A DNA stretch of 64,000 nucleotides from Tubulanus polymorphus (lineage: Eukaryota > Animalia > Nemertea). The notes below the pieces were generated by a model. It had not been told where the DNA came from, made no database searches, and saw only the letters and a program-made list of their open reading frames with translations. Positions 1 to 22,472 of the stretch are shown piece by piece; the stretch's first letter is position 1; each line of letters starts with the position of its first letter. The stretch is from assembly GCF_964204645.1 (NCBI RefSeq), contig NC_134031.1, positions 13,627,807 to 13,691,806 on the forward strand, read 5' to 3'. Both the position numbers and the translations under genes were made by a program.

Positions 1-829
1 GATCTTCCATAGAAAATATATTAAATATTTCATCTAGATATTTTAATTTTGGTTCTATGAGAAAATCTCTAGTTTTTTCATCACCCCATAAATTCTTTTG
101 CCATCCACATACATTACAAAATATCACAGAACCTTCTTGTCTTAAGTACTCATAAAAACATTTTGGGTATTTTTGTCTATCATAGCTTGGTAATAGATCT
201 TCATTAAACTCTTGGTATTTTCTTACGTTTTCTTTATGTTTTATTGTTCTATTATGTAAATTTGAATTACTTGTTGTAATAATCAATTTACAATATTTAC
301 AATAATATGTTTTTCTTGTTAATTCATTATATTGTTTTTCTAACTTTTCAACTGTTTCTTCATTATCTGGCAACGTTTTCTCACATTTTATTTTTTCTAA
401 TATTTTATTTTTTCTTTCATTGAATTCAGTTTCAAATTTATTAGAAATTTTATCTATATGTATTTTACGAAATTGATCATTTTCCCAAGCTTCTTTGTTT
501 TCAGGAATATATTTCATTCGACAAGGCTCGCAGAAATGATCTTTCATATTATCCTTGTCATAGAATAAGAAAAGTCTTTTCCAAATAATTTCAGATTCAA
601 CTTCAGCAGAATTACTATTACTTTCATTACTATCAACATTAGCCGTTGCGCCATTAATTTTACACTTCTCTGAATGTTTTTTAACATAATTTCTTGAGAA
701 TAATTTATTACATTTTGGGCAGTTTATTTTAGGGGGTTTATAATTTTCATCATGTTTTTTCATATGTCGAGCCATATTACTTTTTCTGATAAGTTCACCA
801 CAAATTTCACATCCTATCTTCTCATCCAT
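1..829 (-). CDS. Multi-zinc-finger protein of the viral element (>=276 aa, runs off window start; absent from the ORF track)
   Basis: Manual translation from ATG at 829, open to the window edge: MDEKIGCEICGELIRKSNMARHMKKH, CPKCNKLFSRNYVKKHSEKC, CEPC, YYCKYCKLIITTSNSNLHNRTIKH, CNVCG. Preceded by TAAATG. Confidence 0.8.
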   Translation of the reverse strand, partial: MDEKIGCEICGELIRKSNMARHMKKHDENYKPPKINCPKCNKLFSRNYVKKHSEKCKINGATANVDSNESNSNSAEVESEIIWKRLFLFYDKDNMKDHFCEPCRMKYIPENKEAWENDQFRKIHIDKISNKFETEFNERKNKILEKIKCEKTLPDNEETVEKLEKQYNELTRKTYYCKYCKLIITTSNSNLHNRTIKHKENVRKYQEFNEDLLPSYDRQKYPKCFYEYLRQEGSVIFCNVCGWQKNLWGDEKTRDFLIEPKLKYLDEIFNIFSMED

Positions 830-897
830 TTATTAAGGAAAAATTTTATTAAAATTAATTTATAGTGATGAGCGGTAATTCTTTTATGTTATAAATA

Positions 898-1662
898 ATG
901 GTAGAATTAAAAGAATATAGAATATTTGTTGATTCTAGAAAACTTACAAATTATAAATCACATTATTTACTAATACAATTAGATAGAGAATTTAGAAATT
1001 GTGTAGATCTGAAATTAGTAAATATAAGTTTATGTAATTCTTTTCAAAATATATCGAATAAAAGTCTTGAACATAAAGTCTTTTTAGTTCATGATAGTAA
1101 TAAAAGTAAATGGTTTCATCTTTATATCAAACCAGGGTTATATAGTTTAGATATATTAGCGCAAGAAATTAAAAAAAAGGTCGAGTTAAATTAGGAAGTG
1201 ATACCGGATTTAACATTAGATTTTCAAAAAGTGATAGTTCTAATGAAATTAAGATAAAGTTAGATGATGATAACAAATACGCATTTTTAGTAAGAAAACC
1301 TTTAGCTAAACTGTTAGGAATAAGCCCGCATACTATTACAAGAAACATAGAAGGTAATTCAAATATAATACCTTTTACACACTTTTATATTTATTGCAAT
1401 TTAATTGATCCTACAAAAACATTTGAAGCAATAAAGTATAAGCAATTCTAGTATATTAAATATTTTACCATTAAAAAATGTTAAACAATTTGGAACACAA
1501 ATAAATTATAATTTAACAGAATGTGATTTTAAACCTTGTATTTCAAGTTTTAACAATTTTAAGTTAGAAATAAGAAATCACAATGGTTACTTAATTGATT
1601 TGAATAACTTTACTGTAATTTATGAATTAGTTATAAGATGTAAAGAGTTTTTTGTTATATAA
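898..1662 (+). pseudogene. Putative minor capsid (penton, single jelly-roll) protein, frameshifted, copy 1
   Basis: IFVDSR N-terminus, KPGLYS, FYIYCNLID and C-terminal FKLEIRNHNGYLIDLNNFTVIYELVI resemble PLV/Maverick penton motifs. Frameshifts near 1180 and 1440. Confidence 0.6.
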
Positions 1663-2016
1663 ATGAATATGACAGTAGGGCCGAGTATATGTTTTGGGTT
1701 TGATTTTAAACGTGAGAAAGAAATTAAATTTGATATTACTGATGTAATTACACATATTAAAAATATTGCATTTTGTAACGAAACAACATTTGAGTATGAA
1801 AAAACAATAGATAAAGAAACTTTTAATGTAGAAAAGATTACTAATTTAATTAGAGAATCTTTAAGATTTTATGAATTAGATGAAGATTTTATCATCGATG
1901 ATATTAAAAAAATAATAATTGAAATATATACAAATGAAACTAGTAATGAAATAAATGTTGAAATAATCATAACTAAGATAACTAAATATTTTGAAGATAG
2001 TAATTTTTTTGATTAA
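1663..2016 (+). CDS. Viral hypothetical protein (117 aa), copy 1
   Basis: Intact ORF with TAAATG start; near-identical paralog starts at 14035 (-). Confidence 0.7.
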   Translation: MNMTVGPSICFGFDFKREKEIKFDITDVITHIKNIAFCNETTFEYEKTIDKETFNVEKITNLIRESLRFYELDEDFIIDDIKKIIIEIYTNETSNEINVEIIITKITKYFEDSNFFD

Positions 2017-2019
2017 TAA

Positions 2020-2241
2020 ATGAGTGATAATAAGTGGATAATAACTGGATTATATAATGGAGCCTAACTATCAGTTGGAACTGTTGGTTATTCAATGGTA
2101 TTAAAAAAAGTATTTAAAATGGGAAGTGTTAATGTTGATAGATTTGATATAAATGATATCTTAAAATTAACATTAGCAGTAACTTTATCTAATTTAACTA
2201 TTGATTATTTGGAAAAACAAAAATATATTCCTCCCATATAA
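2020..2241 (+). pseudogene. Small hydrophobic viral protein (73 aa), copy 1, nonsense at 2065-2067
   Basis: TAAATG start at 2020. MSDNKWIITGLYNGA*LSVGTVGY... is collinear with the intact copy at 10532-10753 (-). Confidence 0.75.
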
Positions 2242-2265
2242 ATACATAATTTTTTTGCTAAATGA

Positions 2266-2704
2266 ATGGCTTCTGCAATTATAACTATCATAGGATCGGC
2301 AATTGTAAACGCTTTAGCATTTACTGGTGGTGGTTATTTATTTAGGCATTTAGATAAAAATAGTTCATTAGAAGAACAAAAAAGACATAACTTAGCATTA
2401 GAGAAATACAATAAAGCAGCAGAAGAATACAGAGAAAAGAGGCAAAACTATATGGATTACATCAATAAAGAATTATATGATCAGAAGATTTCACATAGAG
2501 ATTTTCAATCAGTTGATGATGCAATGAGTTTATATAACGCGGTAACCAATAAAGAAAAAATTACATCTATACAAACCTAAATTATTAGATTATTATACCC
2601 CAAGAAAAGAACAACAGAAATATGAAATAATTTGGATTTTAGGCGGAACAGTTATTGTTATATTTGTTGCATATAGATTTACTAAAAGTAATTTTTTTTG
2701 TTAA
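2266..2704 (+). pseudogene. Viral membrane/coiled-coil protein (MASAII...ALAFTGG), copy 1, frameshifted in an A-run near 2555; end approximate
   Basis: Hydrophobic N-terminus, helical middle, and hydrophobic C-terminus (IIWILGGTVIVIFVA) in the shifted frame. Paralog at 10125-10509 (-). Confidence 0.7.
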
Positions 2705-2708
2705 ATAA

Positions 2709-3146
2709 ATGGATGATAAAGTTGATAATATTGATATTATTCCTCATGATATAAATAAAACTGAATTAGAAATATATTTAGAAAAACAAATATTAGAATT
2801 TGAAAGTGACTTAAAGATAAAAAAGAAAAAATATTTAAAAAAAAGTAAAATTATATATTATCTTATTATTAGTGGTTCAGTTACAATTAGTTCTGTAATA
2901 ACATTTCTAGCAATATTCAGTCCATTAACACCTTTAGCTATATCAATTGGTGTGCTAGGTTTAAGTTCAAGTGTTTTAACCGGTATAAGTTCAAAATTAA
3001 ATACAAAAAGTAATAAAGAAAAAATTAAAACTAACATTAAAGAAATAAATAAATTGAAGAATACACTAGATTATATAATAAGTTTAAATGGCCATATAAC
3101 AGTTGAAGAACAAGATAAATTATTAAAAGAATTAATGAATTATTAA
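2709..3146 (+). CDS. Viral two-TM-helix protein (145 aa)
   Basis: Intact ORF with a hydrophobic hairpin IIYYLIISGSVTISSVITFLAIFSPLTPLAISIGVLGLSSSVLTGI between basic helices; TAAATAAATG start. Confidence 0.7.
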   Translation: MDDKVDNIDIIPHDINKTELEIYLEKQILEFESDLKIKKKKYLKKSKIIYYLIISGSVTISSVITFLAIFSPLTPLAISIGVLGLSSSVLTGISSKLNTKSNKEKIKTNIKEINKLKNTLDYIISLNGHITVEEQDKLLKELMNY

Positions 3147-3162
3147 TTTTTTAATTACATAA

Positions 3163-4482
3163 ATGGGGTTTCCAAAATCTTTTCAATATAATAAATCACA
3201 TGAATATTATAAATATAATACGCCAGCAATAGATTTTAGTAACATGATAATATATAAAAATTTAGTTTTGCCTTCATTGATTAATTTAGAAATTTATGTT
3301 ACTGAAACAAACTATTTTATTTCTAAAATGGAAAATATATTTAATACATATGAAGTTACTTTTACTCGAGATGAATATAATATATATAAAGTAAAATCTA
3401 ATATGAAATATTGGCAGAATCAATTAAATTTTGCTGTTCATTGTGCAACAGCTGGTTGTGGTGTAAGTTGGCATGAACACTTGAATAACTTAGATAAAAA
3501 TTTGAAATATTCTGATTTAAAATTCATTCATACAATATTTAGATTTCATGCATACTTTCAAATTAGAATTATGTTAAATGAATTAGAATGCCCTTTACCT
3601 GGATCGAAATATTTTAAAGAATTGGATAATAATATTAATCTATCTAAGTTTTATAAAATATGTAATGAATTTAATATAAATATTAATTTCGATTTTAGAG
3701 CGCATGGTAGATTACATGGCGTTGGTGAAGAGTATGAAATAAAAAGAATTGATTATATGCATAGAATTTCAGCTTATCATAATTATAAAATTATAAAATT
3801 GATAATAATAATGGTTGGGTTTATTTTATTGAATCTTATAGCGAAGGATTTACAAAACCTGGTATACAAAGAATAAATCAATCAATTAGAACTTATTTTA
3901 TTTGTATTTTAGGTGCGCAAGTTGAAACAAGATCACCAATAGTTGGAAATAATAGTACTTCATTTGATGCGCAGAAACAATTCAAAGTATTATTTGAAGA
4001 TTCCATTCATAATGATAAAAATAGATCGATTCCAGAAAACATTGTATGATATCAAAATTATTTAGATAAATCACATATTAGATTAAATTATTGTATAGGC
4101 CCTAATCTATTAATTATTTCTAATGATTTAGTATTAAAGATGGGAAATATAATTGGTTATAATAATCTAATGAAAACTGCAACAATAAATAATTCAATTG
4201 GATTAAATGATATAAATAAAAAGATTATTACTGCTCCAAAATTAATGGAAGGTGAAAAAAAATAAAAAACATATTCAATCAACTGAAACTAAAACTAAAA
4301 ATATTAAATTGGATAATGATTCCTAAATAAAAGATTACAATACTACAGAAAATATTAAAACTGATAATATTCCACATGAAATAATTAAACTAAATGATGA
4401 TAATAAATCCCATGAAAATGCTAAATTAGCTTTAACTTGTATAGGAATTGTTATAGGAGGAATATTATATTTTAAATTTTAA
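3163..4482 (+). pseudogene. Conserved PLV hypothetical protein with C-terminal TM anchor, frameshifted
   Basis: WQNQLNFAVHCATAGCGVS and FRFHAYFQIR, continuing after a frameshift as GIQRINQSIRTYFICILGAQVETRSPIVG...DAQKQF, ending HENAKLALTCIGIVIGGILYFKF*. Recalled as a family typical of marine-invertebrate PLVs. Confidence 0.65.
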
Positions 4483-4498
4483 TTTTTTTATTATGTAA

Positions 4499-6244
4499 AT
4501 GGATGTAGAAGGTGAAGAAGATATTCCAATGGATACTTTTGGTGACGCCCCCGGTATAAGTGATGAACCACAACCTGATTTTAATGAATCTAATATTGAT
4601 AATGATGATGGATCAGCATATAATACTAATTTAGGTGAAGATGATTCTAGTGGGTCTATATTATATGATTATGATAAATTTAAAGATGATACTGAAAAAA
4701 GTGAAAAATTAATAGATTATTTGAGAACCCGCGTTGAGATAATAATTAAAACTATACCAGAAAGAAAAGAATTATTTAAAGAATTAGAAAGAATAGAAAA
4801 CCCTGAATTGAAAAAAGAATTATTATACATAAAACATATCGTAACAAATACAGTTATTGAAGGATTATTACCAAAAAATATAACAGATAACATTGAACCA
4901 GAATATATTTACGAACAAATTTTAAAAGATGATCCATTTTTCATGAATAATTTAGAATTTAAAAATGATTCATGGTTTTATAAAGTTGAATTAAATAACG
5001 AAACAGTATCAATTCAATTATCTAAAATGTGACAAGAAAATCTGTACCGTCCAGAAATGCGAGCAAGATCTACAATTGAACGTTCAAAAGGTGGTAGAGA
5101 ATTTCTCAGAATTATATGGAATGCAATCGATAGAATAAATGAAGAACCAATTCCTAATATTGATATAAACAAATATTCACCATTTAAAAATCCAAATCCA
5201 AATCCTACTGATTTTGATCCAGAAATGGAAGAGTATGCAGGTCGATTAGATAAATTAAGATCTTCAACACCCGGAACATCGAGAAGAGATATTCAACAAA
5301 TTGATAATGGCTCAAGTAAATTACAATTAGTAATAGAAAAACAAATTGATAGCATGTTAGATACAGTTCAATCATTTGAAGAAGAGATGAATAGTGCTTT
5401 AGATACACCCGGTGCTGAAACTGGAATAAATCAAATGCAATCTTTACTAGAAAAAGGATTATTTGATTTAACTGATGAAGATTTAGAAACATTTCCTGAA
5501 CAAGCGCGTAGAGAAATTAAAGGCGTACAAATATCAGCTAATAAAATTGCGCATGATAAAAGTATAAGAGATCAAAAAATTATGTATTTGGAAAAAGAAT
5601 TAACTAATGCAAATGAAGAAATAGAACAATTAAAGTCTGATTTAGATCATCAAGTAATTGATGAAATAGAATATAGGCAAAAAGAATTACGTTTAGAAAA
5701 AGAAATTGATAATTTAAAAGATAATTTAGAAGTACAGAAAGGTGAAAGAAATATATTATTAAAAGAATTTGGTAATAATTTTAAAAGATTAAAAGATGTT
5801 TTTAAAGATTTGTTGATAAAACCAGATTCTAAAATATCATTAAAAGATAGAATAAAATTATTATTCAAATTAGAAGGTATAAAAATTATTTCAATTCTAA
5901 CAGCTGTAACTATGTTATTTACAACAATTGGTTTAGCTATATCAAATTCACTGAAATCTACTCCTACTCCCAATAAACCGGATAAACCTCCAGATAATAA
6001 TTCTATACAAGATAAAGTTAAGGATGGTTTAAAAAAATTAGCAAAATATTTATGGGAACTATCTAAAAAATCTGCTGCAGCATTACCAGGAATTATTGCA
6101 TCAATTGTTGGTTTTATATTGAAATCTGCAGGAAATATTATTAACTTTGCTGCTGAACATATTATTTTATTTTTAATTACAGTTGTAAGTGCTATTATTT
6201 TTGGATTAGTGAATATGATATCAAAAAATGTCAAGAAAGAATAA
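4499..6244 (+). pseudogene. Large acidic/coiled-coil protein with C-terminal hydrophobic helices; one gene split by an in-frame TGA at 5030-5032
   Basis: ORFs 4499..5032 and 5057..6244 are in the same frame (offset 558 nt) with only one stop between them. Only 4499 has a TAAATG start. Confidence 0.75.
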
Positions 6245-6294
6245 TAAAAAATAAACATAATCAAAAATAAATAATTAATTTTTTTGTTAAATAA

Positions 6295-7575
6295 ATGAGT
6301 GGGAGTTATATCAATCCTTCTAAGAATCATAGAATATCTAATGCTATTAAAGCAGAAAGATCACATCATATAATTACTCATAATCCTTCTAATATTAATC
6401 CTGATGAAACTTTATATGTTAGAATCCCCAGATTAACACAAAATACTTTTTATGTTCCAAATAGTATTTATTTATCAGCCGATATAAAAGTAAGCGGTAA
6501 TAATAATAATTATGTTGTTGATAATGTTGGAAGATATTTGATTAAAAAATTAACTATAAAGATCGGCCCAGAAAAAGTTTTCTCATTAGATGATTATAAT
6601 TTATTTATACATTATAAAGATTTATGGTTAACTAAAGAAAATAGAAATAATATGATATTTCAAGGCATTCAATCGGAAAACCAAAATAAATTAAGATCAG
6701 GAGCTAATGACGCAATAGTAACTAATGCTACAGATAATTTGATAAAAAAGATTTATGGAAGCAAATATAAAATTCCATTTGACTTTGAATTGATAAATAA
6801 TCATGCGCCTTTATATAAATACGCAATTCAAGAAGATGTTATATTTGAGATAACATTTGCTCCTGTAAATGAAATTGTATTATCCAGCGTTAATAAAGAT
6901 ATGGGATATAAATTATCGAATATATGTTTAGAATATGACACAGTAACTGATGAAAATATTGCTAACACAATTCAAACTCAATACAATCAAGGATTTTCAT
7001 TATTATATGATTATATTGATAAATTTAAAACTGTAACTATTAATGCAAATGATGAAATAATTAATGAGAATATTAACTTCCCAAGAAGATCTATTAAAGG
7101 TATATTAATATTTTTTACCATTGCAACATATTCTAATGGCGCAATAAAGGTAGATAATTACTATAATCCTGAAATAACAAAAGTAGAAATAACTATCGAA
7201 GGAATAGCAAATAAAATATTTTGTCAAGGAATGAGAATGATTGATCAATGGCCAGAAATTAGAAAACATTTTATGAATGAAAAAGTAAAATCATCTGAAA
7301 ATTGTAATATTAATCAAATTGATTATTATACCGGTAATAAATATGCATTATGGTTAGATTTTAGAACAACAGAGGATAATTCATTACATGGTTCTGGGGA
7401 AAAAAAACTACAGAACACTAAAGACGGAATACAATTATTCATGAAAAAGAAAAAAGGAAGCTTAAATTTTAAAATGCACATTTATATTATATCTGACGCA
7501 CAATTAAATATTGTAAATTCACAATTAGATAGTATTCAATATTGGAAATATAAAGTTAAAATTAACGATATATAA
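6295..7575 (+). CDS. Putative major capsid protein (double jelly-roll) of a Polinton-like virus, 426 aa, intact
   Basis: Capsid-typical length, beta-rich alternating patterns (LYVRIP, VIFEITF, YKLSNICLEYD, ITKVEITIEG, YALWLDFR, MHIYIISDA) and position next to a Maverick-type integrase. Fold is inferred, not verified. Confidence 0.7.
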   Translation: MSGSYINPSKNHRISNAIKAERSHHIITHNPSNINPDETLYVRIPRLTQNTFYVPNSIYLSADIKVSGNNNNYVVDNVGRYLIKKLTIKIGPEKVFSLDDYNLFIHYKDLWLTKENRNNMIFQGIQSENQNKLRSGANDAIVTNATDNLIKKIYGSKYKIPFDFELINNHAPLYKYAIQEDVIFEITFAPVNEIVLSSVNKDMGYKLSNICLEYDTVTDENIANTIQTQYNQGFSLLYDYIDKFKTVTINANDEIINENINFPRRSIKGILIFFTIATYSNGAIKVDNYYNPEITKVEITIEGIANKIFCQGMRMIDQWPEIRKHFMNEKVKSSENCNINQIDYYTGNKYALWLDFRTTEDNSLHGSGEKKLQNTKDGIQLFMKKKKGSLNFKMHIYIISDAQLNIVNSQLDSIQYWKYKVKINDI

Positions 7576-8586
7576 ATGGGTGGTAAAAAAACTCCTAATA
7601 CTAAAGAACAATATTTAAGAAATTTATATTACAACCCTGAGAGTTCGGTTGCTTATTCTTCTACCAAAAATATATGGCGTCAAGTAAAACAAGATAAATT
7701 AGATAAGATAATCCCACAAAATTTAGTTAAATATAAAGATATAAATGAATTTATGTTAGAACAACCAACATATACAACACATAAAAAAATTGTTAGAAAA
7801 TATAAAACTCGTAAAACTATGGTAAGTTATGTAGATCAACAGTGGCAAGGAGATTTAATTGATATGAAAATGTTAAGAAAGATAATGATGATTATTGGTG
7901 GATATTGAATATAATTGATATTTTAGAGTTTCCCACTTTATAGAAAAGATGCTGTACAAACATCAAATGTTTTAAGAAAATTTCTTTCGGATGATAAACT
8001 AAAACCAGAAAAAATACAATTTGATGATGGAAAAGAATTTGATAATTCACTTGGTCATGAACTCTTAGATAATCATGATATTAAATATTTTTCAACAAAA
8101 TCGGATAAAAAAGCAGCAGTTGTTGAACGATTTAATAGAACATTAAGAACAAGAATGTGGAAATATTTTACAGCAAATAATACTTTTAAATGGATTGATG
8201 TTTTACCATAATTGATAGAAGGATATAATAATTCTTATCATTCTTCTATTGGAATGAAACCTATTGATGCTAGAAAACCTGAAAATGCTGAAATTGTTTG
8301 GAATAATTTATATGGGGCATTTCTTGTAGATGATTTTGGTGAACCTAAATTTAAAGTTGGTCAAAATGTAAGAATTTCTAAGTATAAAAAGATATTTGAT
8401 AAAGGATACGATCGTAATTCTACTAGAGAAATATATCAAATAAAGAGAGTAATAACAAAAAAACCATATGTCTATAAATTAGAAGATTTAGATGGTGAAG
8501 AAGTTTATGGCTACTTTTACGAAGAAGAATTAAGTTTAACTACTGAAAACCTAGAACAAGAATATAAAATTGAAAAAGTATATTAA
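7576..8586 (+). pseudogene. Maverick/Polinton-type retroviral-like (rve) integrase, frameshifted and C-terminally truncated
   Basis: LYYNP, WQGDLIDM (D), IQFDDGKEF (D), AAVVERFNRTLRTRMWKYFT (E), YNNSYHSSIGMKP, KFKVGQNVRISK, GYFYEEEL, YKIEKV (start of a lost chromodomain). Frameshifts ~7870-7930 and a stop near 8210. Confidence 0.93.
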
Positions 8587-8591
8587 ATATA

Positions 8592-9074
8592 AAGAATAAT
8601 AATTATGAATATTATCTTTATTGTAAACATCAATTAGAAATATTAATAGCATCTGGGAAATGTAAAAGTTTTATTAGTAAAAATTTAACTTATAATGAAT
8701 TAGATACAATGAAATCAGATGAAATTATCAAATTATTTAAGATTTATGAAACTGCGAAAATAGCTAGAATTAATGACGCGATATTAGAAAATGTAGTAAA
8801 AGGTTATAGTAAATTATGTAATTATAAGCTGCCAATTCAAGATGAAAAAAGATTATATTCCGATTTAAAAAATGATTATTTAGTTATGACTGAATTAAAT
8901 AAGTGGATTGGATATTTTTCATTTCAATTAGGTGGATTTATGACATTATTATCAACTGGAGTTATAACATTTTCAAATATTGAAAGTAAAAATGTTTCTA
9001 TAATAAATGAGCGAAGTGGAAGAAGTGAAGGAATTAACTGTGAAGAAAAAACCGAGAACTCAGAAACAAATTGA
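8592..9074 (+). pseudogene. Viral hypothetical protein, 5'-truncated (joined to the integrase end by a deletion)
   Basis: Frame is open upstream of ATG 8709 (YCKHQLEILIASGKCKSFISKNLTYNELDT); hydrophobic C-terminal segment; no TAAATG start retained. Confidence 0.55.
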
Positions 9075-9389
9075 ATGGTCTCGGCAATGAGAATTAAATC
9101 ACAAGAATATAAAAAAGCTGTAAAAGAAAAAATAAATAATAAAAATGGTGAAAATATTGTTATTTCTACTCCTTCTAATAATAGAACATTTGATAAATGT
9201 CTATATTTTACAGTTGGATTTGTAATTGTATTCATTTTGATTGGGTGTAATTGGTATAAGAAATCAAATAAAATTCATGATATTAATAATTCTGAAACAA
9301 CTGCTATCATAAATGAAAATACTTCTGAAATTCCAAAATTGACAATAAAAAAATGGACTAATATTTTAGAAAAAAAGCAAAAAAAATAA
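9007..9389 (+). pseudogene. Viral basic protein with central TM helix, frameshifted near 9088
   Basis: TAAATG at 9004-9009 gives MSEVEEVKELTVKKKPRTQKQIEWSRQ, which continues after a frameshift into ORF 9075..9389 (IKSQEYKK...CLYFTVGFVIVFILIGCNWYKK). Confidence 0.6.
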
Positions 9390-9512
9390 TTTTTTTTAAA
9401 TTAATTGAATATCTCACTACTTTTGTCTATCTATGCGGAGCAATTAAATTGTCCAGATAAGTCATTTCGGATTCTAGATATTCATTATTTTAATTTATTT
9501 ATTTTTTTAAAT

Positions 9513-9839
9513 TTAATCAACAATTTCTAAATCATGATGACCATCTTCATTTTTTCCATGATATATTATTTTAAATCCTTCTAAATCTTTTAATTCCTCT
9601 GTACTCAATGAAACCCATTTATCAGGTAAAAATACTTTAAATTCTCGTGATGTACTAACGTTGCAGTAGCCTAAATTCGCTGATACTTTCTCTCCATATT
9701 TAGTTTTTATCTTTTCTAATTTCAATATTTTTTGTTCAATTTCTTTTGTAACATCCACTAACTTTTTTATTTCAAATTGTTTTTTTACTGGTTTAATTCT
9801 GTTATTTATTGTTACTAAGAATGCTTTTCTATCTCCCAT
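9513..9839 (-). CDS. Small viral protein, possible OB-fold ssDNA-binding protein (108 aa)
   Basis: Intact, TAAATG start. KKL, TKYGEK, VFLP and GKNEDGHH are shared with the paralog at 14837-15178. Confidence 0.6.
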   Translation of the reverse strand: MGDRKAFLVTINNRIKPVKKQFEIKKLVDVTKEIEQKILKLEKIKTKYGEKVSANLGYCNVSTSREFKVFLPDKWVSLSTEELKDLEGFKIIYHGKNEDGHHDLEIVD

Positions 9840-9959
9840 TTATAAGGAAAAAAAATTAATTGTGGTGATGAGTGGTGTGTCGACCGCACGACCTCTGATC
9901 TGAAAACGCCATTACCTAATTACTACCACCTACAATAAAATAATAGATAATTTTACTTT

Positions 9960-10090
9960 TTAAATATTTTTTTCTTTTTTATCTTTAAGTCATTTTCAAA
10001 TTCTAATATTTGTTTTTCCAAATATAATTTTAATTTAGTTTCATTTATATCATGACACCATCAACTAACACCATCAACTTTATCATCCAT
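9960..10090 (-). pseudogene. 5' fragment of the 145-aa two-TM gene, copy 2
   Basis: Reverse complement reads MDDKVD... and later matches 2745-2835; truncated; TAAATAAATG start. Confidence 0.7.
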
Positions 10091-10124
10091 TTATTTAGCA
10101 AAGAAATTACTAATTAGTAAATTT

Positions 10125-10509
10125 TTATGCTACAAATATAACAATAACAGTTCCACCTAAAATCCATATTATTTCATATTTCTGTTGTTCTTTACTTGGG
10201 GTATAATAATCTGATAATTTAGGTTTGTATAGATGTAATTTTTCTTTATTGGTTACCGCGTTATATAAACTCATTGCATCATCAACTGATTGAAAATCTC
10301 TATGCAAAATCTTCTGATCATATAATTCTTTGTTAATATAATCCATGTAATTTTGTCTCTTTTCTCTATATTCTTCTGCTGCTTTATTGTATTTCTCTAA
10401 TAATAATGACCCATTTTTATCAATATGCTTAAATGAATAAACCACCACCAGTAAATGCTAAAGCGTTTACAATTGCCGATCCTATAATAGTTACAATTGC
10501 CGATGCCAT
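10125..10509 (-). pseudogene. MASAI... membrane/coiled-coil gene, copy 2, frameshift plus small internal deletion
   Basis: ATG at 10509 (TAAATAAATG); near-identical to 2266-2690. Confidence 0.75.
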
Positions 10510-10531
10510 TTATTTAGCAAAAAATATGCAT

Positions 10532-10753
10532 TTATATAGGAGGAATATATTTTTGTTTTTCCAAATAATCAATAGTTAAATTGGATAAAGTAACTGCTAA
10601 CGTTAATTTTAAAATACCATTTATATCAAATCTATCAACATTAACACTTCCCATTTTAAATACTTTTTTTAATACCATTGAATAACCAACAGTTCCAACT
10701 GATAATAATGCTCCATTATATAATCCAGTTATTATCCACTTCTGATCCGCCAT
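10532..10753 (-). CDS. Small hydrophobic viral protein (73 aa), intact copy 2
   Basis: Intact ORF, two hydrophobic helices, TAAATAAATG start. Confidence 0.75.
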   Translation of the reverse strand: MADQKWIITGLYNGALLSVGTVGYSMVLKKVFKMGSVNVDRFDINGILKLTLAVTLSNLTIDYLEKQKYIPPI

Positions 10754-10799
10754 TTATTTAGAAAAAAAAATTACTATCTTCAAAATATTCAGTTATCTT

Positions 10800-13760
10800 A
10801 TTTGAAAGGCTGAATCCAAGAACATGTCTATCGAACTTTTGAGCCCATACATCTACTTTTACTTAGTAGCCACTTGAGAACAATAAGCAATTAACGATAT
10901 CGGCTACTTTTCCAGTAGTATACATTTCAAAACAGTCACTCTGAAATTGTATTCCTTTCGATTCGATTGGTGTTATATAGTGGCTGTTTCGAAGAGTCTA
11001 CTATAGAAAAGTTAAAACATCTGGTTTCGATAGTGCACACTAGCAGTAGAGGTGACTGTAAAACCACCCGTCTGTAAACAGTGACTTTGTGATAGTAACT
11101 CCTACCATATCAGCTACTCTCAAAACACATCGTTCCTAAAAGTCAACTATTGAAAAGTGACCATTTTGAGATTCCCTGTTATAAATACACTGCAGCAACA
11201 TATGCTTCAGATTTGCAGTGATACGTGACAATATAAACATACTCAGAAACTATAGTGAAAACTCTACTCACTGACACGCTATAGTCTTGGGTATAGTTCT
11301 ATTTAGAGTGACTCAGTTAAGATCTGAAGATAGTGAAGATACTCTTTGAGGATGTGAAATGTAAATGTAATGAGCGATTCCCAACTCTAACCAATTAAAG
11401 TCGTGATTGGAGTTAAATTTGTTTACAAATTGTCAATAGTTATGTAGTTTCAAGACAAATCGAAATTTTCTTCTTTTCATGGCGATATAATTAAATTAAG
11501 AATTCAATTCTAACAAATGCAGCTATTTCATAGCATAGGTCTGCATTTATTTTTCATTTAAATTCTTGAATTAAAAGTGCAATCATACATACCTCTCATT
11601 ATTGAAATGGTAGTTTTCAGCGGGAGCCTGGATTTCTTTCTATCTTAAATTACAATGTGCATTTCGGAGTGTTCGAATTTGCCTGAATTCTAATTTCGCT
11701 GAATCATTGATTTTTTCTTTAACAAATCCGTGGGGATTTTAAACATTCTAAAGAAATCATCTAAAATGAGCCCAAATTTGATCGAATTTAATAGCAATAA
11801 GAAACTTTGTATGGTATTCAAGATTTCATTTTGATTACAGTAACGGCCTATGGTGATCATCACCGGGGTCATGAGTGAAGAACTCCCGTAATAGAATTTT
11901 AAATATGATAAAATTTGGTGAAACCGCAACGTTTCGACTGTTGACTAACAGCCATCATCAGATGGAATGTATGAAATGTAGGCATTCCTAAAACGGAGTG
12001 GTTTAACTTTGATAAATGTTATAATACTAAATTCTATTGTGGAATTTCTTCATTTATCTACAGTTAACGGATTAGAGTATTTGATTCTACTTCTTCGGGT
12101 CCTGTAGTCGTTAAGGTCGAAAATTTTCGACCTTAACGACTACAGGATGGAAGCATGGAAGCAATTTACAACCATGTTGGTCGCTATGATAGAGATTCCC
12201 TGTATATCTGCACCTTAAATCGGTACCTCTGTTGGTTCTAGCCCGCATTTGCTTCCAAATTCAAGTATTGGTAACGTTATTCTTACTCTGAATGCACTTC
12301 TGTCGTCGAATATGGTGCCACATATTAGTAGTTATTATTTTACGACAATTTGTGAAAAAGAGGTTAGTTTGAAAAAACTGATAATTATCTTATAATTCAG
12401 CGATTCATTGGTTCTTCGATTCAGCGAAGTTCAAACATTGTACATTTTGGCGTATTATTTTATTGGCACCTTGAAATAAAGACAAATAGAGATATTGCGG
12501 TGCTAAGTTTATTACTAAGAGGTAAACTTTTGGTTCGTGGTCTTTTGGTGGCCAATGCAATTTGTTCATTCGTTCATCAATCACTGTCTAGTTAGCCAGT
12601 GTAAGTGACTTGCTGACCGTCTGCTGCTGCTGGGTTTTTGATAACCTATACAAACAATTTACCCAACAAAGTAGGAAAGTATGTGCAACTGAAATTGCAG
12701 CCTATCACATTTCTTTCACTTCTTAAGCCAAACGAAGTTTTCTCTATCAAATGAAATTGCTGATTTCAAAATTACGTGAACATCTCAACACCGCACTTTT
12801 ATACGCTAATCGTGTGATCTTATATAATAAGTTTGTAATTACATTTCAACCAAACTGTATAATTATGAAATAAGATTTGATCAGGGAATCGCTTCTAGCA
12901 AGCGATAAAATATTCAATATTCATTAACGAACAAGCAGAGAACAGCGTGACAAAGTGAACATCACATGGATTACTTAAAAATCGTTTGTATCGAAATAAA
13001 CAATAAATTTAAGGTTAATTTAGATAAGTATTTTAGATACATCTTTTCGGAATATTTTGCGTAGTCTTCATCCAGATAATGAGATAAATAGGACGTGATT
13101 AATTTTATGAACATATGATTTTATTTGTATATTCCTCTCTCATATATCCTTAAAAACAAACTAAGCCTAAAAGACAAATTTATTCTTTCATCTTTTGTTT
13201 TCTACAAAATCAAAGATTTATGAACGCACCAGAATGTTTTATAATTGCAAATGTAAAACATAAATTTTATCTTAAAATCTTAAAATTCTAAATTCATGGG
13301 CGGATTTAGACCGTGTCGAATTTCAAAGTGCCTTTTTATTCTTTTCTCTGTATCAAAATTTGTCGTTATAACCACCCGAGATACACAATAGATATTTTTC
13401 CTAGATATATAACCTGTTTCTTGACTTAATGCCTCTCAGGGATGCTCAAAAAAGCTCTAATGATAGTAAAATTTAAAAAAATATTGCTGATATGCCTTTC
13501 TGCCCTAAATTAAAAATATATGCCCTTTTATTGGTCGTCATGGTCACAACATGCCCCTGGATCCGCCCCTGAAATTAGGACTGGCACTATACAATATGTA
13601 TTAGTATTAATGGATTTAATCCATGATGATGTTATATAAATGTATAGTTTTCCTATTGGATATTGCCATTTTGTTAAGCGTAATATAAATTTGCGGATTC
13701 TTAGCTACTCAAAAAACTTAGATTTTCTATTCACAGAACTGTATTCAAAGCATACAGAGT
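10800..13760. mobile_element. ~3 kb host interspersed-repeat insertion splitting viral 117-aa gene copy 2
   Basis: The gene's 5' part lies at 13761-14035 and its 3' tail at ~10770-10800. The segment 10800-11455 recurs at ~51528-52140. Contains a nested MITE-like piece at ~13296-13571 (CATGGGCGGAT...ATCCGCCCCTG). Confidence 0.75.
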
Positions 13761-14035
13761 TCATTTTCATATATTTCAGTTATTATTCTTTTAATATCAT
13801 CAATGATAAAATCTTCATCTAATTCATAAAATCTTAAAGATTCTCTAATTAAATTAGTAATCTTTTCTACATTAAAAGTTTCTTTATCTATTGTTTTTTC
13901 ATAGTCAAATGTTGTTTCATTAGAAAATGCAATATTTTTAATATGCGTAATTACATCAGTACTGTTAAATTTCATTTCTTTCTCATGTTTAAAATCGAAT
14001 CCAAAACATATGCTCGGCCCAACAGTTATATTCAT
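13761..14035 (-). pseudogene. 117-aa viral gene copy 2, interrupted by insertion
   Basis: MNITVGPSICFGFDFK... is near-identical to 1663..2016 up to EIYENE. Confidence 0.8.
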
Positions 14036-14052
14036 TTATATAGTGAAAAAAA

Positions 14053-14822
14053 TTACTCTCGACATCTTATGATTAATTCATAAATTATAGGAAAATTATT
14101 TAAATCAATTTAATATCCATTATGATTTCTAATTTCTAATCTAAAATTATTGAATTGAGGAATACAAGGTTTAAAATCACATTCTGTTAAATTATAATTT
14201 ATTTGAGTTCCAAATTGTTTAACATTTTTTAGCGGTAAAATATTTAATACTAGATATATCTAATACTAGAACTACAAATTGTTTCTTTAGTTGCTTCGAA
14301 AGTTTTTGTAGGATCGATTAAATTGCGATAAATATAAAAGTATGTAAAAGGTATTATATTTGAGATGCCTTCTGCGTTTCCAGTAACTGTAAGCGGTTTA
14401 ATTCCTAACATTTTAGCCATTGGTTTGTTTACCATAAATTTATGTTGTTCATTAGATATCTTTATTCTTATTTTATTAGCACTATCAATTTTAGTTAATT
14501 TAATTTCAAATACAGAAGTGCACCCGATTTTCAACCGAGCTCTTCTATTAATTTCCTGCGCTAATGATTCTAAATTATATAATCCTGGTTTTGAAAATAG
14601 ATGAAAACATTTATCTTTATTTCTCATATAAATCATAAACCCTCTATGTTCAAAAGTTTTATCCGATATATTATAGAAAGAATTACATAAACTTACATTT
14701 ACTAATTTTAAATCAACACAATTCTTAAATTCTCTATCTAATTGTACTAGTGAATTATGTGATTTATAATTTATAAGTCTTCTTGAATCAACAAATATTC
14801 TGTATTCTTTTAATTCTACCAT
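14053..14822 (-). pseudogene. Putative minor capsid protein, copy 2 (frameshift near 14255)
   Basis: Paralog of 898-1662; the shifted frame ends ...IYELIIRCRE* at 14053. Confidence 0.6.
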
Positions 14823-14836
14823 TTATTTTACATATT

Positions 14837-15178
14837 TTATTCGAAATCTATTTCATGGTGCCCTTTTTCATTCTTACATTTGTATATGAAATAGAAATCA
14901 CCAGAACATAATTCTTCTAAATCTTCACTTGATAGTCTATAAAATCTATCTGGTAAATATGTTCTGAATTTATATGTATTTCCCTTTAATCCTTCATATT
15001 CCAAGTGGATAACTAATTTATCTCCATATTTGTTAGTAACTGTATCAATATTTGTAATTAGATATTTCTTATGAATTGTTAATTCTGTTAACTTCTTAAA
15101 TTTATAATCTACAGATTTTACATTTGTAGTATCTTTGATTCTATCTAAGAATTCACTTTGTACTTGTTTACTCTCCAT
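14837..15178 (-). CDS. Small viral protein, possible OB-fold ssDNA-binding protein (113 aa)
   Basis: KKLTEL, TNKYGDK, TYLPDRF, KNEKGHH; paralog of 9513-9839. Confidence 0.6.
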   Translation of the reverse strand: MESKQVQSEFLDRIKDTTNVKSVDYKFKKLTELTIHKKYLITNIDTVTNKYGDKLVIHLEYEGLKGNTYKFRTYLPDRFYRLSSEDLEELCSGDFYFIYKCKNEKGHHEIDFE

Positions 15179-16640
15179 TTTAATAACATATTTTTTATTA
15201 ACATTTATTTTAGAAGTTATTAGATTAATATTTTAAGAGTATGTTGCAGACTGACAACATGAAAAGATAAATGCTGCGGCGTAATTTCAAACTGGTGTTT
15301 ATTACCGTTTTCTACAATACAAATTAACATTTCTCATTATATAAATATGTCATAAATGCAATAACTGAATTACAGAATTAATGTACTTGTATATATGTAC
15401 TTACAAATCATACGCCTAATCGCCAACATGACATTCGGTGAGTAACATACAGAGTATTACTACTGGTGACATATCAGTACCTGTTTATATACTAGTCAAA
15501 CCGTCACACACAGTGAGCGGCTTAGGATAAGCTATTGTGAATACAATACATGCCTTGATATTACAATAATCCTACATAGAAAACTACAAACTGGAATAAC
15601 ATGATAATACTCTAAATATAAAATCTAACAGAGTAATAGGGAATAAGTTGTTCTAGATTAAAGGTTGAGAGGTTGAGTGAGTAGAAAATGAAATGAGTGT
15701 GCGAGAATCTATTTTTCATTTTTTATGAACTCGACCTTTCGACCTTTGATCTAGAACAACTTTTTCCCTATTACTATGATAGATTTATATTTATCGGTGG
15801 TAAAACGGTGGAGACGAATAGCAGACGACTATTTAGTAGGGACTTAGAGCCTACAGCCCATGAGGAGGGAGAATCTATGGCTAAGGGAATATTTGATAAT
15901 ATGTGCTTTAAACTGGAAGAAAACAGGGAAAAAATTTAAACTAAGTTTTTTAAAATTATTTTGAGTATTTCCTACATTAAACCTCAGAAGGACTGCAGAA
16001 AAAAATAAAAAAGGAGTGAAAATTGTGATGAATTTGATTCAAATGATGAGAGAAATGAAAAAATTTACAAGATTGAACATTGAGATGAACAAAAATTTGT
16101 ACAAGTTGCTAGATTGCAAACCAAGACGTACATGACAAAAAGATTTATTACTTTTGAAAAATTGTGATGAAAACAGGGAGGACTTTTTTTTTAATAAGAT
16201 GATTTTGGCAGAATTCTGGGAGGCCGATCCAAGTAAGGTTAAATCATACATTCTATACAAATTCTTTGTATGTTATTTCCAGAAGGAAAAAAAAGTCGTT
16301 CAATATGGGGCGATGACACGAATAGACCTACATGGTGGCCTGAAGACATTCCTTTCGTCAGCCCTAGTGCTATACAAGGTACTTATATATTAGGAATTAT
16401 AATGAATGTGTATAAACATACGTAATATACATTTTGCGCATAAGAAGCTAATCATTTCACAACTAGAGACAATAATTTCACAATAATTTTTCTTTTCAAT
16501 TTCGTGACGACAATTTGTTGCAGTCACTGATCATGGACACGGACCAGGGAAACTTACTTGGATACTAGATTTATATATTTAAACATTTTACATATACAAT
16601 GATCCATAAATATATAAATTTTCAAATATTGCACTTTCAG

Positions 16641-18620
<1,980 letters not shown>

Positions 18621-18868
18621 TGTGTTTTGTATTTTGTGAATAGACAATTCGAAATATATTTTATACTGTAATCGTTTTTCTCTTACATTGGATTTTAAAA
18701 CATTACCAACTCATTCAGACTCGCACTTATTAAGTTCAAGTTGGTCGGTCAAGGTTTACTGTATTTTTGGTGATAGGAGTTAGATATTTTCTTATGTTTA
18801 TATTATCAAAAAAGTCAAAATTCAGCAAAATATCCCTCCGGATTGTTGATGTAATCAGATAAATTTTT

Positions 18869-20025
18869 ACAACCCTGGGGACTTTGACTGGACATTATCT
18901 GGTATATTTACATACCTGGGGCTGATATCTACATTAACAACCCTAGGGACCTTAACTGGACATTATCTGGCATATTAACATCCCTGGGGTTGATATTTAC
19001 ATTAACAACCCTGGGGACCTTAACTGGACATTATCTGGCATATTAACATCCCTGGGGTTGATATCTGCATTAACAACCCTGGGGACCTTAACTGGACATT
19101 ATCTGGTATATTAATATCCCTGGGGTTTGATATTTACATTAACCACCCTGGGGACCTTAACTGGACATTATCTGGAATATTAACATCCCTGGGGTTTGAT
19201 ATTTACATTAACAACCCTGGGGACCTTAACTGGACATTATCTGGCATATTAACATCCTTGGGGTTTGATATTTACATTAACATCCCTGGGGACCTTAACT
19301 GGACATTATCTGGTATATTAACATCCCTGAAGTTGATATCTGCATTAACAACCCTGGGGATTTTAACTGGATATTATCTGGCATATTAACATCCCTGGGG
19401 TTGATATTCACATTAACAACCCTGGGGACCTTAACTGGACATTATCTGGCATATTAACATCCCTGGGGTTGATATCTGCATTAACAACCCTGGGGACCTT
19501 AACTGGACATTATCTGACATATTAACATCCCTGGGGTTTGATATTTACATTAACAACCCTGGGGACCTTAACTGGACATTATCTGGCATATTAACATCCC
19601 TGGGGTTTGATATTTACATAAACAACCCTGGGGACCTTAACTGGACATTATCTGGTATATTAACATCCCTGAGGCTGATATCTGCATTAACAACCCTGGG
19701 AACCTTAACTGGATATTATCTGGCATATTAACATCCCTGGCGTTGATATTTACATTAATAACCCTGGGGACCTTAACTGGACATTATCTGGTATATTAAC
19801 ATCCCTGGGGCTGATATCTGCATTAACAACCCCGGGGACCTTAACTGGACATTATCTGGCATATTAACATCCCTGGGGTTGATATCTGCATTAACAACCC
19901 TGGGGACCTTAACTGGACATTATCTGGCATATTAACATCCCTGGGGTTTGATATTTACATTAACAACCCTGGGGACCTTAACTGGACATTATCTGGCATA
20001 TTAACATCCCTGGGGTTGATATTTA
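18869..20025 (+). repeat. Minisatellite, ~17 copies of a 68-69 bp unit made of 41-bp and 27-bp sub-units sharing AACAWCCCTGGGG
   Basis: AACAACCCTGGGGACCTTAACTGGACATTATCTGGCATATT + AACATCCCTGGGGTTGATATTTACATT repeated head-to-tail. Confidence 0.95.
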
Positions 20026-20157: not shown

Positions 20158-22472
20158 AGAACGACCGCCATATTCGAAGAGAGAGGGCAGCACCGCCTTC
20201 CCCCGTTTTCCGCTACAGAAGTTTGTTTCGACTGATTGCAATCCAGCCGATGATTGTACTCGCGGCCTAAGCGGTTCAGAATTAGAGATTTCCCATAGGA
20301 GGTTTGATGGTCCAGATTTTCTAGAACAGTCCGAAAATAGTTGGCCTTCCCAGACACAAGTTTTTCTATTTCCGACGCTGATGAAAATGTACGAGCTGTT
20401 AGATCAGTGAATAAAGTTTCATCGCTCTCATCAAATATATCTGAGAGGGTTGTTGATTTGCATGATTTAATTCAGCCAGAAAACTTTTCGCTTTGGTATA
20501 TCCCTTGTTGCGCCGAGCTGCTTGGATCGTACCAGCAGAGAAGAATTTTGCTTCTGCAGTTGCTAGATTAGGATTTAAAGCCATAAAATCTAGTACTTTG
20601 CTTCCAGAGGAACTACAGTTTGCAGAAGGTTGCTTAATAGCTAAAGTTCAAAGGGAGGATTTTTCTGAGGATTATATCTGTATTAAAGAGGGCAGGCTAA
20701 TGGAGCGTAGCTCATTACGTTGTGTTGATCCGTTTTTTGTCGGTAATTTTATACGTGTCGGTGGGCGCATCTACAGCGCTCCCTATGTACCCATATAGAG
20801 GCTAGACACAAGATTATTCTTCCATATAGTCACGACATTACGTACTTGTAGTGCAAAAAGAACATCTTTTGAATTTTCATGCCAGACCTGAGCACATAAT
20901 ATCATTGATAAGACAAAAATATTGGTCAATTAAAGCCAGATAAGTTGCTAAGCGAATTATTTCATAGTGTTTCGGTTTCGTCGTCGTTCAGTTAAGCTAA
21001 AAGTTACAGCGAACTTATCAGTTTGTCGTATAACGAGTCATTGTAAGCTTTTCTATTTTTCAGAGGTTGACTATTTCGGGCCTCTGCAAGTAAAAAGAGG
21101 TCGATCTATAGTTAAGGTTTGAGTGTGCCCTTTTACTTTCTTGATAAAGTGCCGTACACTTAGACTGGCCTAGCTGATGTGTTGGATACTGATACATTTT
21201 TGATGGTAGTTCGTAGGTTCATTGGCCGTCGAGGTCAGCCTTGCGAAATTTATAGTGACAATGGTGGGGGACTGATAGGGAGTTATATAAATGAATGTTT
21301 AATTCAGTGGAATTAGTCACGAATTTCTAATTTTTGTCTTGAAAGAGGTATTAAGTGGGTTTCTAATCCACCCTGTGCTCCGCATTTTGGTGGAGCTTGG
21401 GAGCGATTAGTGAGAACAGCTAAGAACGCACTTAAATCAGTTTTGAAGGGTCAATCATTCCATGAAAATGTATTACGAACGACACTTATAGAAGTGGAGG
21501 CTGTAATAAATAGTCGTCCGTTGACTTATAATAGTTCTGATCAACACGATTATACCCTAATTACTCAAAATCACTTTCTTCAAGGAGGTGCCTCCTATGT
21601 GCTCATCAAGGAGTGTTTCATGAATGAGAGATTAACAGTCGCAAACGATGGAAACAGTGCCAAGTTCTGGCTGATCTTGTGTGGCGACGATGATTGTCAC
21701 ATTATTTGCCGAAGTTAACTGCGAGCGGCAAGTGGTTAATTGAAAATTAAAATGTAGCAGTAGGAGATTTAGTTCTGCTCGTTGATGAAGATGCTCCCAA
21801 GGACCAATGGTCTCTAGGGCTTATTGTCAATGTATACCTAAGTGTTGCTGATGGCCGTGTCCGCACAGTAAAGGTAAAATCAGCATCAGGAGAGTATGTA
21901 CGTCCGGTATCGAAATTACGTGTTCTGGAGGAAAGTATTGAATGAATGAATATTGTATTGAAATTAAATGTTGTTCGATGATTTATATAAATAATATTTT
22001 CTTATTGACACCGTAATATTACGGACGTCAAGGAGGTGCCATGTAGGAATTTATGTATGAAGTTAAATTTGTGTTTCCTTTACCGATATTGTTAAAGTTG
22101 TGTTTTAGTACTGTTGCATTTGTATAAACTACTTTCCTTAAATCCTTCGCGCTTCGCTTCACGTATGATTAAATAGATTTAGTAAACCATGAACTTCTAT
22201 CTGTATTCATTTTCTGGGCATTTCTGTAAATGCACAGTTCTATTCTGTCATTCGTATTAGACGTATGCCAGCACTACGTTATGGCTGGAAATAGCAATTG
22301 TAAGTTATCAAATTATCACAATTATCCGCAAATTCTATTGTATTGTTACTCATTTAGTTGTTCTTTGTTTTGTAGCAAACCGGTACTCGTTACTTTGCAG
22401 CCGTAAATAAAATCCGTAAAGTTATTCCGACGTCGTCGTTAAGTCATTTTTTGTAGATCGTAGTTGCTGACA
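20158..22472 (+). mobile_element. BEL/Pao LTR retrotransposon remnant (3' pol/integrase plus 3' LTR ~22042-22472)
   Basis: Degenerate DYFGPL, RRGxPxEIYSDNG, NPPCAPHFGGAWERLVRTAKNAL, EVEAVINSRPL, WSLG...DGRVRTVKVK. Purine-rich tract then TGTAGG...AATAAA...TGACA. Confidence 0.88.

Follow-up and report, generated by a model that had tools for sequence, protein, structure and literature searches.

Polintons, or Mavericks, of animals are usually regarded as nuclear elements that are transcribed by the host. We analysed a 64,000 nt stretch of the genome of the nemertean Tubulanus polymorphus (GCF_964204645.1, contig NC_134031.1, positions 13,627,807 to 13,691,806, forward strand; hereafter the window), the left part of which carries dead integrated copies of a multi-copy Polinton. 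The genes of this element begin at promoters that resemble the post-replicative promoters of poxviruses. Their transcription was probably cytoplasmic and carried out by the polymerase of a poxvirus-like helper, not by host RNA polymerase II (Pol II). With Polintons as described by Starrett et al. ('adintoviruses', PMC8502044), the element shares its integration in an animal, a double-jelly-roll capsid protein, an rve-chromo integrase and, in relatives, an A32-type ATPase, pPolB and terminal inverted repeats. It is unlike them in its pox-type promoter and in the lack of an adenain protease match among the open reading frames (ORFs) scanned. The word 'promoter' does not occur in the main text of that paper, and a literature search conducted largely outside subscription journals found no published report of pox-type promoters in a Polinton.

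A link between small integrating viruses and poxviruses has a precedent. Polinton-like viruses (PLVs) from entomopoxvirus occlusion bodies have been proposed as poxvirus hyperparasites in animals; according to Barth et al. 2024 (PMC11296320), they are ~12 kb in size and one is integrated in a beetle. By the description given there, they are set apart from our element by a protease, the lack of an rve integrase and other capsid lineages. A preliminary description of the window had cited these viruses as precedent. The association is indeed reported, but it lends no support at the level of promoters, as the main text of PMC11296320 contains none of the words 'promoter', 'motif' and 'TAAA'.

The virophages mavirus and Sputnik share promoter motifs with their helpers, and the provirophage is silent until the helper infects (PMC6428243); the PLV Gezel-14T likewise shares the motif of its helper (bioRxiv 2022.07.28.501842). 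Our element is similar in being a small integrating DNA virus that shares a promoter motif with large viruses, by its match to the published description of the vaccinia late consensus, and it has an rve integrase as in mavirus. Those systems, however, parasitise Imitervirales within protist hosts, with motifs of the TCTA type or AAAATTGA, whereas our element has an animal host and a motif of pox type and is known from sequence alone. The capsid also falls outside the Lavidaviridae lineage, with a merely fold-level likeness to the mavirus major capsid protein (MCP) at 9-10% identity.

The yeast plasmids pGKL1/2 are not known to carry a capsid or an integrase. Like the element, they are AT-rich pPolB replicons with a TAAAN initiator and slippage-derived poly(A) leaders, but they encode their own polymerase and capping enzyme and use an ATNTGA element (PMC6211774), which was found in just 1 of 54 promoters here (3.3 expected); a capsid gene is present here.

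TAAATG at the gene starts of the element

The preliminary description had listed 18 gene starts in the window, and we recovered all of them: 15 read exactly TAA-ATG, and the other three are the variants it had named, TAAATAATG at 898, TAAATGAATG at 2266 and TAAAATG at 15178. As background, TAA precedes 42 of the 474 ATG triplets in the element regions (27/456, or 5.9%, without the 18 starts) and 51/1948 in window positions 15300-64000. The binomial P for 15 of 18 is ~3e-16, although the starts are not independent, as 12 of them make up six paralogue pairs (Table 1), which reduces the 18 to 12 genes. Five of the pairs lie within two inverted segments of 83-88% identity, and the sixth (9839/15178) consists of homologous proteins. 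For each of the 12 genes, one copy or more begins at exact TAAATG; a count of 10 or more out of 12 has a P of 3e-11.

A T-run had been noted about 5-12 nt upstream of most starts. The run is real and its spacing is tighter: a run of four or more T ends 5-7 nt before TAAAT in 12/18 starts. A run ending 5-8 nt before TAAAT was seen at 11 of the 15 exact starts, versus 1 of the 27 TAAATG words of the element that are not gene starts (Fisher P 3e-6). It also proved correct that TAA is mostly not the stop of the gene upstream, since it closes an upstream frame of at least 60 codons in 2/15 cases only (1663 and 7576).

The motif is confined to one capsid clade

Searches with the capsid protein encoded at 6295 returned 155 homologues, the closest of which (50-79% identity) lie on short, almost all unnamed contigs of up to 17 kb; a named mollusc protein is 38% identical. 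Of 224 metagenome loci, the best 80 were retrieved and numbered L001 etc. Five starts that the ORF caller had missed (829, 2020, 9007, 10090 and 10509) belong to genes that are broken in the window copy, and they can be accepted as real because their homologues in L003 begin at TAAATG.

The capsid N-terminus was reached in 68 of the 80 loci, three of them without an ATG. The capsid gene starts with TAA-ATG in 13 of the 14 closest loci, the exception reading TAAATGAATG, versus 0/51 of the more distant ones. These 14 loci and the window form one clade, with a support of 99 in a quick tree of 62 rows; a more careful tree, built from 31 selected rows and rooted at the midpoint only, gave 100/99. 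The clade set used below comprises 16 loci, with L026 and L073 placed through identity only; the near-duplicates L002 and L013 were dropped for the counts of promoter shape and TTTTTNT.

The same restriction was seen for all genes, counted as ORFs of at least 100 aa with a homologue in another locus: TAA-ATG stands at 46/56 starts in the clade versus 8/394 outside, and six of the eight outside cases resemble antisense frames in GC-rich loci. Among starts matched for AT content (upstream GC <=25%), the motif was found at 42/50 in the clade and 0/58 outside (Fisher P 3e-22, inflated by relatedness). The matched outside starts have A at -3 in 74% of cases. Start counts in related loci are not independent draws, and P values serve as guides. 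The motif persists in loci with 36-44% GC (L006-L008). At clade starts, TAA was the upstream stop in 2/60 and the sequence read AATAAATG, in which the poly(A) signal AATAAA overlaps the motif, in 24/60. Seven of the eight divergent gene pairs in the clade, 19-72 nt apart, carry TAAATG on both genes.

Shape of the start region

The shape of the promoter was measured on 54 clade starts, with 82 TAAATG words that are not gene starts, mostly in coding DNA, as control. T was found at -12 in 48/54 starts (89%) versus 24/82 control words, T at -13 in 76% and A at -18 in 80% of the starts. G and C are almost missing from -18 to -13 and return at -11 to -8. A T-run is present in 39 starts, and in 29 of them the last one ended 5-8 nt before TAAAT; A-runs ended 9-11 nt before TAAAT in 18/26, and the positional enrichment of runs was above that in all 300 shuffles. 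An early-promoter class was not evident, as TGAAA occurs in 7/54 clade promoters, which is not significant.

According to two published accounts, the vaccinia late promoter is built from a core that contains T and, after a spacer of 5-7 bp, TAAAT(G/A) (PMC5294985); the 10th nucleotide upstream is a conserved T, and intermediate promoters have an AT-rich stretch further up (PMC11980589). It is the core of the poxvirus polymerase that recognises the TAAA initiator, which lies 12 bp from the core element (PMC12917281). Slippage at TAAA yields a poly(A) leader (PMC6211774), and TAAATG marks genes of fish and insect poxviruses (PMC4542343; PMC3061580). Set against these published descriptions rather than against poxvirus sequences, the positional data support a clade start region with the apparent shape of a poxvirus post-replicative promoter: TAAAT(G) overlapping the start codon, a T-rich core 5-8 nt upstream, a conserved T ~10 nt upstream and an A-rich class beyond. 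The T peak lies at the 9th nucleotide upstream (89%) and the 10th (76%), versus the published 10th. Unlike in vaccinia, the promoters stand on a Polinton, and the A-run class lies 9-11 nt up versus the 12-bp spacer of vaccinia intermediate promoters.

The element is of Polinton/Maverick type

The capsid at 6295 was predicted with a pLDDT of 85 from a 47-row alignment (29 from the single sequence), and the model matches the MCPs of SGIV, PBCV-1 and mavirus (Foldseek, E 2e-17 to 3e-12), which identifies the predicted fold as that of a double-jelly-roll major capsid protein. Locus L003 (11.5 kb, with open genes) is largely collinear with copy A of the window and encodes an rve-chromo integrase, an A32 ATPase and a deoxynucleoside kinase. 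The A32-type packaging ATPase, deleted from the window copy, is found in clade members L003 and L011. No pPolB was found in the window; a C-terminal fragment is present in clade member L008, 37-44% identical to proteins of L018, L028 and L035, which have full pPolB genes (PF03175). The outgroup loci L028 and L035 are 13-14.5 kb long with inverted repeats of 99-133 nt at their ends. The preliminary description had called the element a Polinton-like virus. It is an integrated virus-like element, but the name does not hold in its narrow sense, because the rve integrase and the pPolB of the relatives make it a Polinton/Maverick.

An adenain-type cysteine protease gave no Pfam match in the window, in the clade or among the ten L035 and three L028 ORFs scanned, although some of the unnamed genes may encode a divergent one. 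IMG/VR contained no relative of the capsid, of the pPolB fragment or of the VLTF3-like protein described below, the annotated phage collection contained no relatives, and a search of GTDB gave three short, distant contigs in metagenome-assembled genomes (MAGs).

Two loci of the clade carry deoxynucleoside kinase genes (L003:10343-10981 - and L007:2898-3377 -), to our knowledge an unusual Polinton cargo. The close relatives of the L003 kinase are all unnamed and do not point to a donor. Genes resembling HNH nucleases or endonuclease VII were seen at variable positions, all with TAAATG (L001:5568-6080, L008:3289-4020, L026:2278-2895 and L007:1717-2445); the L007 gene has no family match and was grouped by eye.

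Sister clade and other relatives

The sister clade comprises L015, L045, L050, L068 and L078 (tree support 88/96) together with L071, added by likeness. In these loci, which were chosen after their starts had been seen, TATA lies within 22 nt of the ATG in 18/21 starts (6.4 expected; 0 of 300 shuffles). In asfarvirus and its relatives, the late motif described is a TATA located where initiation takes place (PMC5974111; PMC11788076). A 165-aa protein of the sister clade (L050:5082-5576 +) matches the C-terminal part of Pox_VLTF3 (E 3.6e-5; 24 bits at a cut-off of 25) and has no counterpart in the other loci. The words 'VLTF' and 'promoter' do not occur in PMC3671162. Ten AT-rich outgroup loci (L018, L024, L029 and seven others) have TATAAA near the ATG in 13/35 starts (4.4 expected), possibly a third promoter type, and the remaining GC-rich loci (254 starts) show no excess of TATAAA.

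The start regions suggest that the family may contain several helper-tuned clades. A broader idea, which we hold tentatively and at less than even chances, is that this animal Polinton family consists of integrating virophages of Pokkesviricetes, the TAAATG clade depending on an undiscovered invertebrate poxvirus and the sister clade on an asfarvirus-like helper, as its TATA motif and captured VLTF3 domain would suggest.

Which polymerase read the promoters?

The preliminary description had attributed expression to the polymerase of a pox-like or other large DNA virus helper. Its promoter reading is upheld by the clade restriction, the independence from AT content and the bipartite spacing; the step from promoter to helper is our best inference, and we regard it as probable. 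What the analysis shows are the predicted capsid fold, the integrase, a TAAATG that includes the start codon, an A-then-T core kept at a fixed distance from it, and the restriction of these promoter features to one clade. Under this explanation, the helper polymerase would read TAAA, start at the first A and slip, so that transcripts would begin with a poly(A) leader. Until a helper infects the cell, the integrated copy would be silent; the element would then be replicated by its own pPolB and packaged within the helper factory, as mavirus is in that of CroV.

Families of polymerase, capping and transcription-factor proteins were absent among the clade ORFs scanned, which come from partial contigs. 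For the 1663, L001:2461 and 9839/15178 families, Pfam, PHROGs, PDB sequence and Atlas searches for a pox polymerase subunit were empty save for a weak lead to a single-stranded DNA-binding protein (SSB). A Rap94 match in L071 (E 0.019) was treated as chance. The longest contig on record for L003-type proteins is 16.9 kb, which leaves ~5 kb unseen, and a 1200-aa pPolB would fill most of this. The element thus seems too small to encode its own polymerase, and a co-infecting helper is therefore the simplest source of one.

Several observations weigh against the helper explanation. The evidence for the clade comes from 16 metagenome contigs that are related, in part nearly identical, and without host information. 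Nor can the outgroups be taken as proven controls for Pol II, because the sister and AT-rich outgroup loci show their own excess of TATA or TATAAA. TAAA is frequent in AT-rich DNA, even in vaccinia outside promoters (PMC12917281). A scan of IMG/VR for a helper by promoter pattern returned six unrelated contigs, and no pox-derived gene was found in the TAAATG clade itself. The longest contig of the clade, at 11.5 kb, lacks pPolB, and no complete member is among the loci, so that a self-encoded apparatus is possible. AATAAA is depleted alike in both groups (observed/expected, O/E, 0.88 in the clade versus 0.85 outside) and does not separate nuclear from cytoplasmic transcription; depletion of splice donors likewise failed to separate the groups. 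Avoidance of TTTTTNT, the poxvirus early terminator, is suggestive only. The word is indeed depleted on sense coding strands, with 19 seen against 45.6 expected in the clade (O/E 0.42) and 24 against 33.5 outside (0.72), and clade O/E values are 0.51 for T5VT, 0.82 for T5VV and 1.00 for the antisense form. But A-runs of at least 7 are depleted as much (O/E 0.50), and a general avoidance of homopolymers may explain the deficit. Downstream of stop codons TTTTTNT is not enriched (of 61, 11 have it in sense and 10 in antisense), and an early terminator fits poorly with late-type promoters.

Could the host have transcribed these genes? Pol II might have acted in the nucleus from upstream promoters, with TAAATG and the T-run forming a lineage-specific initiator or translation context convergent with that of poxviruses. 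Such a view fits an element that integrates and is multi-copy in its host species, the close spacing of divergent genes outside the clade too, the equal depletion of AATAAA and the lack of a known helper. We nevertheless consider it unlikely: T stands at -3 in place of the A that most AT-matched outgroup starts have, the motif agrees with vaccinia late promoters in initiator, spacer and core, and a fixed T at -12 and an A-then-T core have no known part in scanning translation. That the pattern is a mere by-product of AT content, stop-start coupling or overlapping poly(A) signals is highly improbable and has been largely refuted. The element has only 22-27% GC and AATAAA falls within the 24/60 clade starts noted above, but AT-matched outgroup starts lack the motif entirely, the motif is kept at 36-44% GC and on divergent genes, and TAA hardly ever serves as the upstream stop.

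The helper may also have been a cytoplasmic large DNA virus outside Poxviridae with the same initiator, such as an egovirus, an asfarvirus relative or an undescribed lineage of Pokkesviricetes. We know of no poxvirus from likely marine invertebrate hosts, and the asfarvirus-like TATA of the sister clade points in the same direction. So does a contig of a giant-virus MAG (L088), which has TAAATG at 3/9 of its ORFs of at least 90 aa. Egovirus-like genes occur in marine sediments and egoviruses have donated genes to polintons, according to a report that gives no promoter data (bioRxiv 2024.03.23.586382). Yet the viruses for which TAAATG at the start codon has been published are chordo-, entomo- and fish poxviruses; for asfarvirus relatives the published motif is TATATA/TATTT, and mimiviruses have different ones. 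We give a helper of this kind a low probability. Other ORF starts of L088 read AATAAAAATG. A lower probability still attaches to a pox-related RNA polymerase encoded by the element itself, or by a linear plasmid that accompanies it in the cytoplasm, in the manner of the yeast virus-like elements. These have the TAAAN initiator and polymerase slippage (PMC6211774), and a complete clade member is absent from the loci examined; against this stand the near absence of the yeast ATNTGA element, the mere 13-14.5 kb of the relatives with terminal inverted repeats, and the ~5 kb unseen in the L003-type contig, which pPolB would mostly fill. Transcription by a poxvirus-like helper is the explanation that we favour.

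Anatomy of the two copies and chromosomal setting

Table 1. Features of the window, with positions counted from its first nucleotide
Feature	Position	Strand	Start and remarks
Zinc-finger gene, 276 aa visible, runs past left edge	1..829	-	TAAATG; zf-U1 E 5.5e-7; homologue at L003 end, 52% over 56 aa
Copy A putative minor capsid (penton) gene, broken	898..1662	+	TAAATAATG; 40% to L003:565-1326
Copy A orphan gene, 117 aa	1663..2016	+	TAAATG; no match in Pfam, PHROG or PDB
Copy A small hydrophobic gene	2020..2241	+	TAAATG; early stop breaks frame; 89% to L003:1733
Copy A conserved family gene, hydrophobic N-terminus	2266..2690	+	TAAATGAATG; broken frame; matches in L003, L007, L008, L016, L020, L021
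Copy A probable membrane protein gene, 145 aa	2709..3146	+	TAAATG
Copy A conserved family gene	3163..4482	+	TAAATG; several breaks; L003 version 442 aa
Copy A long helical gene, hydrophobic C-terminus	4499..6244	+	TAAATG; stop-broken
Major capsid protein, predicted double jelly roll, 426 aa	6295..7575	+	TAAATG and T7 run; open frame
rve integrase gene, broken, 3'-truncated	7576..8586	+	TAAATG; 54-65% to L001, L003, L005 integrases
5'-truncated conserved gene	8574..9056	+	Junction near 8590
Conserved basic gene, C-terminal hydrophobic segment	9007..9389	+	TAAATG; broken frame; DNA match to L003 until 10258
108-aa gene	9513..9839	-	TAAATG; 73% to L003:125; 94 homologues
Copy B distal part, paralogues of 2020, 2266 and 2709 genes	9925..10803	-	Starts 10753, 10509, 10090 all TAAATG; 10090 gene truncated; 88% inverted match to 1971-2876
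~3 kb non-element insertion splitting copy B	10804..13759		Contains repeat seen again at 51561-52140 (87% over 605 nt)
Copy B proximal part, putative penton (14822) and 1663-gene paralogue (14035)	13760..14828	-	Both TAAATG; 83% inverted match to 893-1938
113-aa paralogue of 9839 gene	14837..15178	-	TAAAATG
Retrotransposon integrase-like fragment	21317-21718		Recognised by eye; no Pfam match
RING-finger exon	24367-24759
Brinker/HTH transposase piece	28024-28506
LINE endonuclease and reverse transcriptase	33012-37545
262-aa frame	56846-57634
Paralogue pairs, by start	898/14822, 1663/14035, 2020/10753, 2266/10509, 2709/10090, 9839/15178

The window holds two degraded copies, A and B, arranged head-to-head (Table 1), in which most genes besides the capsid have stops or frame breaks. 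The capsid frame is ~10 codons longer than in close relatives. The integrases of L001 and L003, to which the broken copy A gene corresponds, bear rve and Chromo domains. The ATPase gene of L003 has been lost by deletion in the window, where L003 7353-8372 joins L003 9522-10258 at ~8593; the L003 homologue of the 9007 gene (L003:9951) starts at TAAATG. The zinc-finger gene at 829 is possibly the N-terminal part of a larger replication gene, pPolB being a guess, and a search for a longer homologue found none. The putative penton at 898 owes its label to size and position, and a PDB sequence search with its L003 orthologue returned nothing meaningful. For the 9839 gene there is a weak lead to a phi29-type ssDNA-binding protein, in that its paralogue scored 0.85 in the Atlas, with the ssDNA-binding family on 44% of that cluster. 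The word GTGATGAG is common to the upstream regions of the 829 and 9839 genes.

Element-like composition stops near 15240. No terminal inverted repeats or target-site duplication were found in the window, the left edge of which cuts the element. We considered whether copies A and B might be long terminal repeats of one element; this is unlikely, as they are gene-bearing and 83-88% identical, a different gene lies upstream of the penton in A versus B, and 334 reads at position 897 run on into a context like that of copy B. Gene order also shifts within the clade: the integrase-ATPase block of L001 and L005 is inverted relative to L003, and in the window the zinc-finger gene and the SSB-like gene have changed places (829-898 and 9839-9900). 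A perfect 48-bp palindrome (12100-12147) lies inside the insertion, and an inverted repeat with 73-bp arms (15621-15786) just right of the element.

The flanks contain a LINE reverse transcriptase and endonuclease, a transposase-type DNA-binding domain and a RING exon, and fit an animal chromosome. A long (GAC)n run followed by 36-39 nt repeats (16653-17011) and a 68-nt tandem array (18798-19986) were also seen. Among 1.9 Gb of DNA reads with the same species label, 34,685 reads fell on window positions 1-9400, at ~60-1100-fold depth and mostly 90-99% alike. From this depth and likeness we conclude that the element family is multi-copy and diverse in the host species.

Implications

A clade-wide switch to pox-type promoters predicts a virophage lifestyle in an animal, together with an unknown poxvirus-like virus in its host. 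A benefit to the host, in the form of a provirophage defence, is only a possibility, and both copies in the window are dead. Polintons may be sorted by their probable helper from start-codon context alone. If the family does contain several helper-tuned clades, the promoter words of endogenous copies would be a fossil record of unseen helpers, and possibly of a provirophage defence in animals.

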